DNA of 64,000 bases from an uncultured Verrucomicrobiae bacterium (GCA_963731265.1 CAVSUE010000001.1:960001-1024000), one strand, 5' to 3'. Shown: positions 6,800 to 9,553, counted from the first letter of the stretch. A program made the numbers and translations. The notes: generated from the sequence alone by a model not told the origin.

Positions 6800-6843
6800 T
6801 GTACCGCCACCAAATTTGTGTTCACAAAATTAGTGGCGGTACA
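6800..6843. mobile_element. Collapsed insertion sequence: two 21-bp terminal inverted repeats (TGT...ACA, IS481/IS3-like) with no internal gene
   Basis: TGTACCGCCACCAAATTTGTG-TT-CACAAAATTAGTGGCGGTACA, 2 mismatches between arms. It abuts two truncated genes. Confidence 0.6.
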
Positions 6844-6995
6844 CCGTCGTCAAAAAAGTCATTTACCGCTTCATCAAAGCTATGACATTCAGGACCTTTT
6901 CCTTCGATCCATATTCTTATTTGATACTCTTTATTAGAAATGCGATAAAGATCTTGCAAAAGAAATTCAACTACTTTTTTTCTATCTATTTCCAT
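6822..6995 (-). pseudogene. Second immunity-like paralogue, truncated by the collapsed IS
   Basis: MEIDRKKVVEFLLQDLYRISNKEYQIRIWIEGKGPECHSFDEAVNDFFDDG aligns with ISDKEYQKRVWIRGEGPEVDDFDETVCHFFQEG of the upstream gene. Its ATG directly follows the upstream TGA. Confidence 0.85.
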
Positions 6996-7367
6996 TCAGA
7001 TATCCCTTTTCTCGACGCAAGTAATACTGAATACTTTCAAAACATCTTTTGCCAAGTTCATAATCTTGCCCCACTCTGGAGTATCTATAAATTCTTCTGG
7101 AAAGTCATTTTCATCAGAAAATGCTTTAAATTGATCTCGGAATTTTCTCAGTATTTGAAATTGATTTTCTGTTAGTCCAAATTCTTCATGTTTTTCTATA
7201 ATTCCATCTCCCTCTTGGAAAAAATGACAAACAGTTTCATCAAAATCATCAACTTCAGGCCCTTCACCTCGAATCCAGACTCTCTTTTGATATTCCTTAT
7301 CAGAAATGCCTTCGAGAGTTTCTAAAACGCAACGTAATATCTGTTTCTTAGCTTTGTTTGTTAACAT
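6996..7367 (-). CDS. Putative immunity protein (SCO4402-like, acidic)
   Basis: ATG 8 nt after the toxin stop. The SDxEYQxRVW and PEWxxIxxLA motifs resemble the SCO4402-like family (recalled, not searched). Confidence 0.65.
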   Translation of the reverse strand: MLTNKAKKQILRCVLETLEGISDKEYQKRVWIRGEGPEVDDFDETVCHFFQEGDGIIEKHEEFGLTENQFQILRKFRDQFKAFSDENDFPEEFIDTPEWGKIMNLAKDVLKVFSITCVEKRDI

Positions 7368-7375
7368 AAAGCCTA

Positions 7376-9553
7376 TCAATTCCTGTAAACAAATTCATCA
7401 TATGGAATATGAGCTTCTGCAGCCTTTCTATCGACTTTATTTCCAAATTTGTCAAGGGCTTCTCCATCTTTCATTTGTACCACGTAAGGTTTTTGCTGAT
7501 GTGGATGTGGGCTGTGCAGTTTTCCTGGCATTACCCTTACAGAAAGATGTGTATTTGTTGGATGGACATATTCCATGCCCGCGCCTTTTTCTGTAATCCT
7601 CACTACATAGTTTTCAGGAATCCCTATGGGTCTTGGAAATGTCCGAAAACCAGTCTCATGGATATACATTCTGATCCGTTCTTCAGGCATAGGCTTTTTT
7701 ATATAGGGTTCTAAAGCATCTCGAGCTTTTTTATGCAGTGCAATCGATTCCTGCATCGATAGGCTTAAATGCTCATAACTATTAGCAATGGATGTCTCTA
7801 GTTTTCCAGCTTGCTTTAACTGTCCCATCTCACGTGCAGTAAATCCTAATTCCTCAGCGAGGAATGTTATTTTTTGGCCAGCTTCAACCACCTCGGCAAT
7901 TTTTGCGCTGCTTCCAATTTCTGCAGCTGTCTCGAGGAGCAAAGTCTCTTGAGCGATTTTGATGTTTTTGGCAATCGCGGCGAATTCCTGTGCACATTTC
8001 AAGCTTTTGCTTGCGAGTGCAACGAACGCCCCTGGGGCAAAAATATCCGTCCCATGCTTTCCCAACGCATACCCTGCCAGCTCTCCTTTTTGTTCCCAGG
8101 AGAGATTCTCCCACTGAGTGATGAGCTGGTGCATTTCTGGAGACAGGCTCTCGGCAATCATTCCCCACTGATCATTGCGGACCAAATGAACTAGCGCAGT
8201 GGCAGCATCAATCATTTGTGCTGATGTCTGAATGGGATGTGTCACAAAGTCAGCAAAAAATAGAAGTAAACCTTCCCCAGATTCATAGATCCCTTTCGGG
8301 ACCCCTTTCGCAAGGCCAAGGCTAAATTCGGAAACAGGGAGGGGATTTGTTTTTTGGGCCTGCGTTGTAAACTGTTGATAATCTTTTAATGAATGTTCAT
8401 ATTGTCCTAAGCCAAAATGAGCAATTCCTCTTTCAAGATAGGGAACGGGATTCATTGGATTTGTCTCAATGGCTCTTCCAAAATCATGGACAGCTTGGTC
8501 ATAATATCCAAATGTTAACGCTGTTTCTCCTCGTACCTGAGGGGAAAGGGTGTTAAAATTGACTTCTTCAGTTGGATTTGTAAACAAGTGTGTATAATCG
8601 GTGGAAAACTTATTATCGATTTCCGGATGTCCGACGTAAGGCCCTTGGGTTTGCCCTGAATAGTACAGCATCTGGTCCTGAAGGGCAGTGAAACCATCAT
8701 GGGCAAGCAGAGATCCTACAACCCTTCCGTCTTCTTCCCAGGAAAGGCCTTGTTGCCCGTAAGCTGGATCTGCAGACTGGAAGAACTGATTTTGCGCGAT
8801 CTTTTCTTTGAAAGAAGAGACTTGGCTCTGGATAGCGTCTGCCATTTCAGGGGGAATGTTGTTTGGATCTGCAGGTGGAGAAGTGTTCTCATTTTTGTCT
8901 GGCTGCACAAGGGCTGGAGCTGAGGCAGCTGCTGCTGCAGATGCAGCGGTAGCCCCGACTGCTGCTGCTGAGGAAACAGCTGTGACTGCGACAACCACAG
9001 CAGCAGCTGCAATGAGGATAGCAGCTCCGATAATAATGGCTTTCTTATGTTTTTTGACGAAGTCCTTGATGTGAGTAACGACATTCTTTTTGTGTTTATG
9101 CTTATGCTTGTCTTTCTTGTGTTTGTGTTTACAGAGCAGGACCATCGCATCGTCCTCGTTATTCAAAAGCGCTGGCAGGATCGTGTATGCGTAGGAAGAA
9201 TCGCGATATGGGGAAAAATTGTAGGAATCCTCTTCGTCTTCGAAGAGGGCTGCGATGTCACTTTCTAAATTGGCAATGGCTGCAGATTCTCCGGGAAGCA
9301 AGCCGATTTGAGCGAGGTATGCGAGGAAGCGGCTAATTTTTTCGAGCTCTTCTTCTGACAGGTTATCGATCCTTCCCTCTTCGATATCACGAAGCAAGCG
9401 TAGAACTTCATCATAAGTGAGATTGAAATTGGCAAAGGGGATTTCCTGGAAATTGATCTGCTGGGGCGAAGAATGTCCGTATTGAGGGCAAACAAAGAAC
9501 GAAGGCGAAGCCACAAGAAGCATTGAGTGGATGAGGCCGTTGAATTTGCCCAT
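7376..9553 (-). CDS. TPR-containing protein with a C-terminal putative polymorphic-toxin (nuclease-like) domain
   Basis: Hydrophobic N-terminus, H/K run, Ala-rich TM, TPRs (YDQAVHDFGRAIETNP..PYLERGIAHFGLGQYEHSLKDY), C-terminal VRVMPG..QQKPYV..LDKFGN..AHIP. Confidence 0.7.
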   Translation of the reverse strand: MGKFNGLIHSMLLVASPSFFVCPQYGHSSPQQINFQEIPFANFNLTYDEVLRLLRDIEEGRIDNLSEEELEKISRFLAYLAQIGLLPGESAAIANLESDIAALFEDEEDSYNFSPYRDSSYAYTILPALLNNEDDAMVLLCKHKHKKDKHKHKHKKNVVTHIKDFVKKHKKAIIIGAAILIAAAAVVVAVTAVSSAAAVGATAASAAAAASAPALVQPDKNENTSPPADPNNIPPEMADAIQSQVSSFKEKIAQNQFFQSADPAYGQQGLSWEEDGRVVGSLLAHDGFTALQDQMLYYSGQTQGPYVGHPEIDNKFSTDYTHLFTNPTEEVNFNTLSPQVRGETALTFGYYDQAVHDFGRAIETNPMNPVPYLERGIAHFGLGQYEHSLKDYQQFTTQAQKTNPLPVSEFSLGLAKGVPKGIYESGEGLLLFFADFVTHPIQTSAQMIDAATALVHLVRNDQWGMIAESLSPEMHQLITQWENLSWEQKGELAGYALGKHGTDIFAPGAFVALASKSLKCAQEFAAIAKNIKIAQETLLLETAAEIGSSAKIAEVVEAGQKITFLAEELGFTAREMGQLKQAGKLETSIANSYEHLSLSMQESIALHKKARDALEPYIKKPMPEERIRMYIHETGFRTFPRPIGIPENYVVRITEKGAGMEYVHPTNTHLSVRVMPGKLHSPHPHQQKPYVVQMKDGEALDKFGNKVDRKAAEAHIPYDEFVYRN

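Follow-up and report, generated by a model that had tools for sequence, protein, structure and literature searches.

An exchangeable PT7-related tip in a candidate polymorphic toxin-immunity locus of environmental Chlamydiota

Do bacteria that live obligately inside host cells carry weapons against one another, and how would such weapons be built? The question is raised by a 64,000-nucleotide stretch of DNA (hereafter the window) from a genome recorded as that of an uncultured Verrucomicrobiae bacterium (GCA_963731265.1, CAVSUE010000001.1:960001-1024000), in which the gene for a protein of 725 amino acids (aa), P0001, is followed by two small genes coding for the acidic proteins P0003 and P0004. 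An initial annotation, made from the sequence, had described this as a chlamydial polymorphic toxin system with a trunk containing tetratricopeptide repeats (TPRs), a nuclease-like C-terminal tip and immunity genes, and all the features of the toxin locus that it described were found where it had placed them, on the minus strand (Table 1). Based on the exchange of tips on a conserved trunk and the coupling of each tip to its own downstream gene, we propose, with a probability of roughly 0.6, that this is a lineage-specific polymorphic toxin-immunity locus of environmental Chlamydiota, whose exchangeable PT7-related tip, blocked by the downstream protein, kills neighboring bacteria. That the locus is of the polymorphic-toxin kind is strongly supported by comparison of the sequences.

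Interchangeable tips and the genes that follow them

A word-indexed search for homologues of the trunk recovered 159 proteins at E ≤ 1e-3, and among the best 120 of these the organism names, where given, are Chlamydiae, Chlamydiales or Chlamydiota, with a single Verrucomicrobiota. When 119 of them were compared to P0001 by BLAST, the alignment of 83 ended no more than 25 residues short of the C-terminus (at query residue 700 or later) while the remaining 36 diverged earlier: 20 end in a tail of about 100 aa with the signature 'HKDKIANP...WP.EIQCY' (type B), nine in one of about 52 aa with 'VRFDFN..PH..PH.H.E' (type C), three in one marked by 'NHALQRA.ERG' (type D), and four are truncated. In alignment A1 (21 sequences) type C departs from the trunk after 'KIAEVV', at about aa 556; types B and D and the tip type of P0001 (type A) share 'ELGFTA.EMGQLKQAGKLE' up to about aa 595 and diverge thereafter.

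A scan of one genome per species, in which the almost invariant 'KKHKKAIIIG' of A1 and the motif Y[AS][FLV]GK[HY]G[AT]D, from the helical trunk domain that is the most conserved part of A1, served as patterns, gave 133 relatives, the best 80 of which yielded 75 loci, mostly on contigs of metagenome-assembled genomes. The loci belong to Parachlamydiales, Simkaniaceae, Rhabdochlamydiaceae, Neptunochlamydia, Sacchlamyda and unclassified Chlamydiota records; none is titled as a Chlamydia species, and a few are titled Verrucomicrobia, Saccharibacteria, Micrarchaeota or 'bacterium', such records of the trunk family not titled as Chlamydiota being taken to be mis-binned. Many assemblies hold two to four loci (four in OZ156466.1, three in CAWIWQ010000001.1), and these paralogous loci have different tips. 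Among the plus-strand open reading frames (ORFs) of the 75 loci and the window, 83 have similarity to the trunk, and the 74 with a complete 3' end were kept and assigned to tip classes by their tail motifs: 38 are of type A (the window included), 15 of type B, eight of type C and three of type D, and of the other ten, four are type-A genes with frameshifts, three are truncated or degenerate and three have unique tips (loci L029, L044 and L063). The common trunk thus carries at least seven unrelated C-terminal tips, and that its C-termini are interchangeable, as the initial annotation had anticipated, is borne out both by the proteins and by the genomic loci. Against Pfam and NCBIfam, the tips of types B, C and D, the three unique tips and the proteins encoded downstream of them gave only sub-threshold hints, namely DUF4258 (E 0.003 for type D, E 0.012 for L044) and DUF4160 (E 0.048 for type C), and in the PDB the profiles of types B, C and D matched nothing at E ≤ 0.3; at least five tip types (B, C and the unique tips of L029, L044 and L063) are without an above-cut-off Pfam family or a PDB relative.

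From the side of the tip, an exhaustive phmmer search with aa 606-725 of P0001 recovered 820 cluster representatives at E ≤ 1e-3, of which 372 were at E ≤ 1e-10. Nearly all of the best 150 of the 820 carry the matching region at their C-terminus or close to it (P0187 and P0231 are among those that do not), and most of these proteins have the same trunk, with some having shortened trunks and others unrecognized N-terminal parts. In P0124 (285 aa), P0127 (245 aa), P0142 (549 aa), P0147 and P0197 the N-terminal module is joined to a type-A tip, and the TPR and helical trunk regions are wholly or mostly absent; because these short architectures connect the N-terminal module almost directly to the tip, the middle of the trunk may be dispensable or modular.

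We then examined the genes downstream of the tips, clustering the first downstream ORFs by BLASTP and seeking missed ones by tblastn. Every one of the 38 type-A tips has an immunity-A gene directly downstream (34 detected by ORF chaining and four by tblastn), an immunity-B gene is found downstream of 13 of the 15 type-B tips, immunity-C genes accompany all eight type-C tips (seven by ORF chaining and one by tblastn), immunity-D genes all three type-D tips, and each of the three unique tips has its own unique downstream ORF. The two remaining type-B tips belong to an orphan fragment (L006) and to a fused ORF of 1396 aa (L057). Tip class and downstream cluster agree with a Rand index of 0.968, a value reached by none of 2000 label shuffles, the highest of which gave 0.63. 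A single class of N-terminal module carries tips of every type (A 21, B 7, C 4, D 2, other 4), the N-terminal module being in this sense independent of the tip. Across 26 type-A loci the distances between tips correlate with those between immunity proteins (r = 0.56; partial r 0.57 with the trunk controlled; 0 of 2000 permutations) but not with those between trunks (r = 0.05), which indicates that the tip moves with its immunity gene and independently of the trunk. The downstream small gene therefore changes with the tip, in keeping with the earlier description; the opposite pattern, an invariant C-terminus with no coupled small gene, was looked for and does not hold in this family.

Partner specificity tied to the N-terminal region of the effector is characteristic of class I chaperones of type III secretion; the small acidic protein was considered as such a chaperone and rejected, its gene following the C-terminal tip and not the N-terminal module. 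As for the exceptional ORF of L057 (3487-7677), it comprises the trunk and a partial type-B tip followed by about 180 further residues and may be a fusion or read-through variant; the ORF after it codes for 179 aa that weakly resemble the type-A immunity family.

Beyond the complete pairs, N-terminally truncated ORFs composed of a trunk fragment and a tip occur after a complete toxin-immunity pair in L006, L054 and L063, and L020 contains a pair of trunk ORFs, one beginning near query residue 241. Non-cognate immunity genes come after the cognate one at seven loci (L041, L050, L053, L054, L058, L063 and L075). Two or more immunity-A copies are present in 13 of the 48 sources with an immunity-A match, with ten merged match regions in L048 and five in L051, and arrays of immunity genes were observed in L048, L051, L004, L008, L019 and L069. 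The window's own shortened second immunity gene, judged by its sequence, fits this pattern of orphans and arrays. L048 (7542-13086) and L051 (1-2893) are the two ends of the chromosome record OZ156466.1, where some 15 type-A immunity paralogues, arranged in tandem, flank a type-A toxin gene and a frameshifted copy and would make up one array if the record is circular. Some type-B immunity proteins are 177-191 aa long (L050 6661-7194, L053 7118-7651, L060 7058-7597 and L024 7754-8329), being internal tandem duplications of the 80-90-aa form seen at other type-B loci.

The type-A tip and its partner protein

The tip of P0001 (aa 606-725) has an isoelectric point (pI) of 9.5 and the immunity candidate one of 4.8, the two being opposite in charge. 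The most conserved tip residues are R673, M675, P676, G677, Q686, P689, Y690, E713, A714, H715 and I716, and among these G677 and H715 are invariant in 51 aligned tips; the motifs quoted in the initial annotation are all present, including the terminal HIP, whose His is H715. An AlphaFold2 model based on the 51-sequence alignment predicts two helices followed by five strands, with a mean predicted local distance difference test score (pLDDT) of 95. A Foldseek search of this model against the PDB, which the initial annotation had proposed, identified 8owu_C (E 6.9e-3, probability 1.00, template-modeling score 0.69 when normalized by the target and 0.46 when normalized by the query) as the only match better than E = 1, the next being at E 1.3, and the same entry was recovered with the model of the full-length protein. 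8OWU is the complex of PT7(Bc) D37A with PIM7(Bc). Similarly, a hidden Markov model of the tips (alignment A2) matched 8owu_B with E 1.6e-4 and 24.8 bits, profile positions 51-114 aligning to chain residues 35-94 and the alignment spanning R-x-x-P, LDxxGN and the terminal [DE]AHIP. The single tip sequence reached E 0.14 at best against the PDB, and the tip alone (P0002) matched no Pfam family at E ≤ 10 and nothing in NCBIfam.

According to the accessible portion of a preprint (Nachmias et al., bioRxiv 10.1101/2021.10.19.465003), PT7 forms the C-terminal toxin domain of LXG fusion proteins in Firmicutes and Proteobacteria, is toxic to both yeast and E. coli, and has a new fold and an acidic immunity protein that occludes its active site; the PT7 mutants are reported there as Mg-dependent, EDTA-sensitive, non-specific endo-DNases that are inactive on tRNA. 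As far as that portion goes, the PT7(Bc)-PIM7 pair and the chlamydial pair are alike in comprising a C-terminal polymorphic-toxin domain and in coupling a basic toxin to a small acidic protein that follows it, and the two toxin domains further resemble each other in fold and in the three motifs above, with [DE]AHIP at the extreme C-terminus. They differ in that PT7 is described on LXG, not on the chlamydial trunk and not in chlamydiae, and in that the chlamydial tip has two extra N-terminal helices and about 22% identity to PT7. By its kinship with PT7, the type-A tip would act as a nuclease.

Both small proteins of the window are acidic (pI 4.76 for P0003 and 4.57 for P0004). P0003 matches the SCO4402 family (NCBIfam NF047838) with E 1.3e-9 and 38.3 bits, below the cut-off of 50, its aa 18-117 covering positions 10-118 of a profile of 119, which is nearly the full length; a further match, to DUF7945 (Pfam PF25656; E 5.9e-4), has 20.5 bits and is below the cut-off of 27. 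It shares with the small proteins of these families the region of an N-terminal 'Y-Q-x-R-x-W' motif, and its nearest atlas clusters consist of unnamed bacterial proteins of 120-125 aa, one of them with DUF7945 in 28% of its members. On these similarities it is plausible that P0003 is a distant relative of SCO4402 and DUF7945, families without a recorded function, whose names appear nowhere in the searchable literature. A single-sequence search of P0003 against the PDB returned noise only.

The trunk and the probable targets of the toxin

The N-terminal module of P0001 includes an acidic segment (aa 31-135; pI 4.1, 23 Asp and Glu residues), after which comes a K/H-rich run (aa 136-172) with 14 Lys and Arg and seven His residues. 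The sole hydropathy peak above 1.6 in the protein (19-residue windows centered on aa 178-196) lies beyond this run and next to an Ala/Ser/Gly-rich stretch, and the 43 residues that start with this transmembrane helix contain no Lys or Arg, against the 14 that precede it. TPR matches at aa 341-400 range from E 4.7e-6 to 6.6e-5; that to TPR_1 scores 26.6 bits in P0001 against a Pfam cut-off of 27.8, homologues pass the cut-off (36.1 bits in P0005 and 35.3 in P0097), and the precomputed Pfam annotation of P0001 lists PF00515 and PF07719. The AlphaFold2 model of aa 410-600 is confident and helical; aa 411-566 are all helical, with block pLDDT values mostly of 74-93 and one of 67. Foldseek found no PDB fold relative of the trunk with the full-length AlphaFold2 model, an absence that for the N-terminal 410 aa carries little weight because block pLDDT values there are mostly below 50. 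At E ≤ 1 against Pfam and NCBIfam, P0001 matched only TPRs and noise, with no trafficking domain (Rhs/YD, PAAR, VgrG, LXG, WXG, TpsA/FHA, MafB-N or TcdB/TcaC), and 22 further tip-bearing proteins searched against Pfam had no Rhs, LXG, PAAR, hemagglutinin or other trafficking domain. These searches and that with Foldseek uphold the initial observation that the trunk lacks Rhs, PAAR, LXG and filamentous-hemagglutinin signatures. In a language-model atlas, aa 405-605 pointed only weakly to other toxin proteins, those of EndoU, MafB and TNT (scores 0.85-0.94).

Because the basic run precedes the helix and the 43 residues from the start of the helix lack Lys and Arg, we posit that the N-terminus is cytoplasmic and that the C-terminal ~510 aa, with the TPRs, the helical trunk and the tip, would lie outside the inner membrane. 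In the producer, the acidic P0003 most likely binds and blocks the basic tip; the tip would be presented or released outside the cell, and neighboring bacteria without the matching immunity gene would be killed, presumably other chlamydiae or co-resident symbionts of the same host cell. Recombination at the junction would swap tip-plus-immunity cassettes between trunks. The main argument for bacterial rather than host targets is the occurrence of orphan and poly-immunity genes. More tentatively, and with odds that we put below even, the N-terminal module, helix, TPRs and helical trunk together might be a distinct delivery scaffold, with no kinship to known trafficking domains, that environmental chlamydiae own for interbacterial killing or kin discrimination within a shared host cell or inclusion, working through an undescribed route of export and entry.

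Several points weigh against this proposal. The PT7 match is modest (profile E 1.6e-4, 22% identity, root-mean-square deviation 5.2 Å), the Foldseek output does not identify 8owu_C as toxin or as immunity chain, and the depositor's label for 8owu_B is 'Transposase'. In the 8owu_B alignment, with an inferred numbering offset of 17, PT7 D37 (the Ala there being taken as D37A) aligns with Met675, which is conserved in at least 90% of tips, and PT7 H47 with a variable position near aa 685; because D37 and H47 thus appear not to be conserved, the chemistry or substrate of the tip may differ from that of PT7. The A3 immunity profile, searched against the PDB at E ≤ 10 (25 sequences), found none from 8OWU, and judged by sequence the chlamydial immunity family is unrelated to PIM7. 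The locus counts may be biased towards close relatives because the loci are the best 80 of 133 matches and mostly contigs of metagenome-assembled genomes, and the shuffle tests ignore shared ancestry. The positive-inside rule is the only ground for the topology, which could be reversed if the N-terminal hydrophobic stretch served as a Sec signal. Finally, chlamydiae are not known to have a route for passing a protein into another bacterium.

The foremost alternative, which we regard as unlikely though worth weighing seriously, is that P0001 is a host-directed effector, its trunk being exported (for example by type III secretion or insertion into the inclusion membrane), its TPR and helical parts engaging host proteins and its tip attacking host nucleic acid, with the downstream protein protecting the producer only before export. 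The organisms are obligate intracellular ones, the TPR region has a very weak LcrH/SycD-type match (E 0.006), PT7 is reported, in the portion of the preprint cited, to be toxic to yeast as well as bacteria, and the available text of the survey of Zhang et al. (2012, PMC3482391) considers TPR-, Sel1- and ankyrin-bearing toxin-like proteins of intracellular bacteria to be probably host-directed. However, the same text notes that host-directed toxins are typically without immunity genes, whereas here such genes are universal and co-vary with the tip. Moreover, non-cognate orphan immunity genes and arrays of up to about 10-15 paralogues are present, and arrays make sense only if the cells meet toxins that they do not themselves make, which counts against a host-directed role. 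Inc proteins have a bilobed hydrophobic pattern, unlike the one hydrophobic peak of P0001.

It is improbable that the locus is instead a non-exported, membrane-tethered toxin-antitoxin or addiction module that stabilizes a genomic island or aborts infection. The tight overlap of the toxin and antidote genes, the low GC content of the cassette, the insertion sequence (IS) remnant adjoining it and an AbiEii toxin gene elsewhere in the window would agree with such a module, but a conserved trunk of 600 aa with a membrane helix is unexpected in a toxin of this kind, tip swapping on a constant trunk, together with orphan tip fragments and polyimmunity arrays, is what marks out exported polymorphic toxins, and PADLOC gave no significant match (best E 0.012, in a low-complexity region). 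Least probable is the identity of the tip put forward in the initial annotation, namely a metal-independent RNase of the Ntox30 type recognized by its terminal HIP motif: although an Arg is conserved in the tips and they end in 'AHIP', the His of which is invariant, recalling (but for a conserved RxH, which was not seen) the 'RxH, R, THIP' listed for the all-beta Ntox30 in the available text of Zhang et al. (2012, PMC3482391), and although the apparent replacement of the catalytic Asp studied in PT7 would allow for another substrate, none of the 51 tips matches Pfam's Ntox30 at E ≤ 10 (the sole Ntox match being of one member to Ntox17, E 0.041), the tip is modeled as alpha+beta and not all-beta, and the only solved relative, PT7(Bc), is a DNase reported, in the portion of the preprint cited, to be inactive on tRNA.

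Returning to the proposed polymorphic toxin, its organization resembles that of the CdiA, Rhs/YD, LXG and MafB systems as presented in the accessible text of the 2012 survey (PMC3482391), which likewise combine a constant trunk, a variable C-terminal toxin, a cognate immunity gene directly downstream, a short conserved junction for cassette swaps, and downstream orphan toxin fragments and immunity genes. The chlamydial trunk differs from these in having none of their trafficking or repeat domains, in P0001 or the 22 other proteins, and in combining an internal membrane helix, TPRs and a helical domain without a PDB relative, and the family differs in being seen in Chlamydiota-titled records, plus the few titled otherwise. 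The same text lists toxin domains in chlamydiae and TPR-bearing toxin-like proteins in intracellular bacteria, and holds that immunity genes are for the most part missing from intracellular bacteria, which would accordingly be unlikely to compete with conspecifics. The environmental Chlamydiota contradict this view, given their two to four paralogous loci, universal cognate immunity genes and orphan arrays, which suggests, insofar as gene content can, that obligate intracellular chlamydiae fight one another. A literature search found no account of the chlamydial trunk family or of such cassettes, though the supplements of the 2012 survey and the PT7 paper may list members.

Polymorphic toxin systems and the PT7 domain are thus already known; what is new, as predicted from sequence, is the lineage-specific trunk, the pairing of a PT7-like tip with a new immunity family in a phylum new to PT7, and several uncharacterized tips. 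The PT7 toxin fold would thereby extend to a further phylum and immunity family, and the trunk family contributes at least five further tip types, each with a partner protein. If the toxins act between bacteria, the way is opened to asking how chlamydiae living in amoebae and other hosts keep out rivals or co-symbionts, how a protein would pass between chlamydial cells and what the function of the unrecognized trunk is; if the trunk is indeed a delivery scaffold, obligate intracellular bacteria would wage interbacterial warfare by a dedicated, undescribed route of export and entry.

The locus and its surroundings in the window

Table 1. Features of the toxin locus, with positions counted from the first nucleotide of the window
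Feature	Position	Strand	Basis
Polymorphic toxin gene (candidate), 725 aa (P0001)	7376..9553	-	ORF; closest homologue 67% identical over the full length, among the matches listed
N-terminal module, aa 1-135: short hydrophobic leader and acidic helical domain	9149..9553	-	pI; conserved motifs in A1
K/H-rich juxtamembrane run, aa 136-172; single transmembrane helix and Ala/Ser/Gly-rich spacer, aa 173-215	8909..9148	-	Hydropathy
TPR region, aa 331-410	8324..8563	-	TPR_1/TPR_2/TPR_11 matches at aa 341-400
Conserved helical trunk domain, aa 411-566	7856..8323	-	AlphaFold2, alignment A1
Junction, aa 567-595 (ELGFTAREMGQLKQAGKLE); tips diverge at its boundary	7769..7855	-	Alignment of tip types
Type-A tip, aa 596-725: two helices and PT7-like beta core	7379..7768	-	AlphaFold2, Foldseek, profile match
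Cognate immunity candidate, 127 aa, acidic (P0003)	6996..7379	-	ORF; homologue 3' of type-A tips
Second immunity paralogue, 57 aa, putative orphan immunity remnant (P0004)	6822..6995	-	Similarity to P0003
IS630-family transposase C-terminal remnant	6538..6825	-	NCBIfam transpos_IS630 E 3.7e-8; DDE_3 E 3.8e-5
22-nucleotide inverted repeat at junction of IS remnant and immunity fragment	6799..6844		Arms 6799-6820 and 6823-6844, 91% complementary
Terminator-like hairpin between gatB and the toxin gene	9678..9697	-	Consensus match only; such sites as numerous in shuffled sequence

The TTG start codon of P0003 overlaps the stop codon of the toxin gene, and an ATG lies 12 nucleotides further in, at 7367, from which the protein would have 123 aa instead of 127. 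The ATG of P0004 comes directly after the stop codon of P0003, and the two proteins, with 49% identity over 47 aa, are paralogues. P0004 covers the first ~55 columns, that is the first half, of the immunity alignment A3 and ends exactly at the start of the IS630-family remnant, which matches profile positions 247-298 of 299 with 33.2 bits, below the cut-off of 100. The transposase remnant thus cuts the second immunity gene, and of the earlier description of small acidic paralogous genes after the toxin the acidity and the paralogy stand, while the second gene proves to be a fragment, probably the leftover of an orphan immunity gene. The arms of the inverted repeat, 2 nucleotides apart, are placed exactly at the boundary between P0004 and the remnant, and may represent abutting IS ends or a deletion scar. 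Upstream of the toxin gene are gatB, gatA and gatC, and downstream of the locus is an RND efflux operon. GC content drops from 0.46-0.48 over the trunk to 0.405 over the tip, and the two small genes have 0.33-0.34 (0.339 for the immunity candidate). No second copy of the trunk and no other tip type is present elsewhere in the 64-kb window.

Among the other features of the window, an ORF at 18159-19073 on the plus strand has a strong match to the AbiEii nucleotidyltransferase toxin of type IV toxin-antitoxin systems (Pfam E 8e-29) and lies within a low-GC stretch (0.40-0.43 over 16001-20000). Two long minus-strand ORFs, of 791 aa (54061-56436, in a stretch with a GC content of 0.40) and 1308 aa (47860-51786), have no Pfam family at E ≤ 1e-5 and could be further lineage-specific effectors. 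A further minus-strand ORF, at 52538-53989, codes for 483 aa, the C-terminal part of which is a catalytic domain of the adenylate/guanylate cyclase type (Pfam E 7.4e-27).

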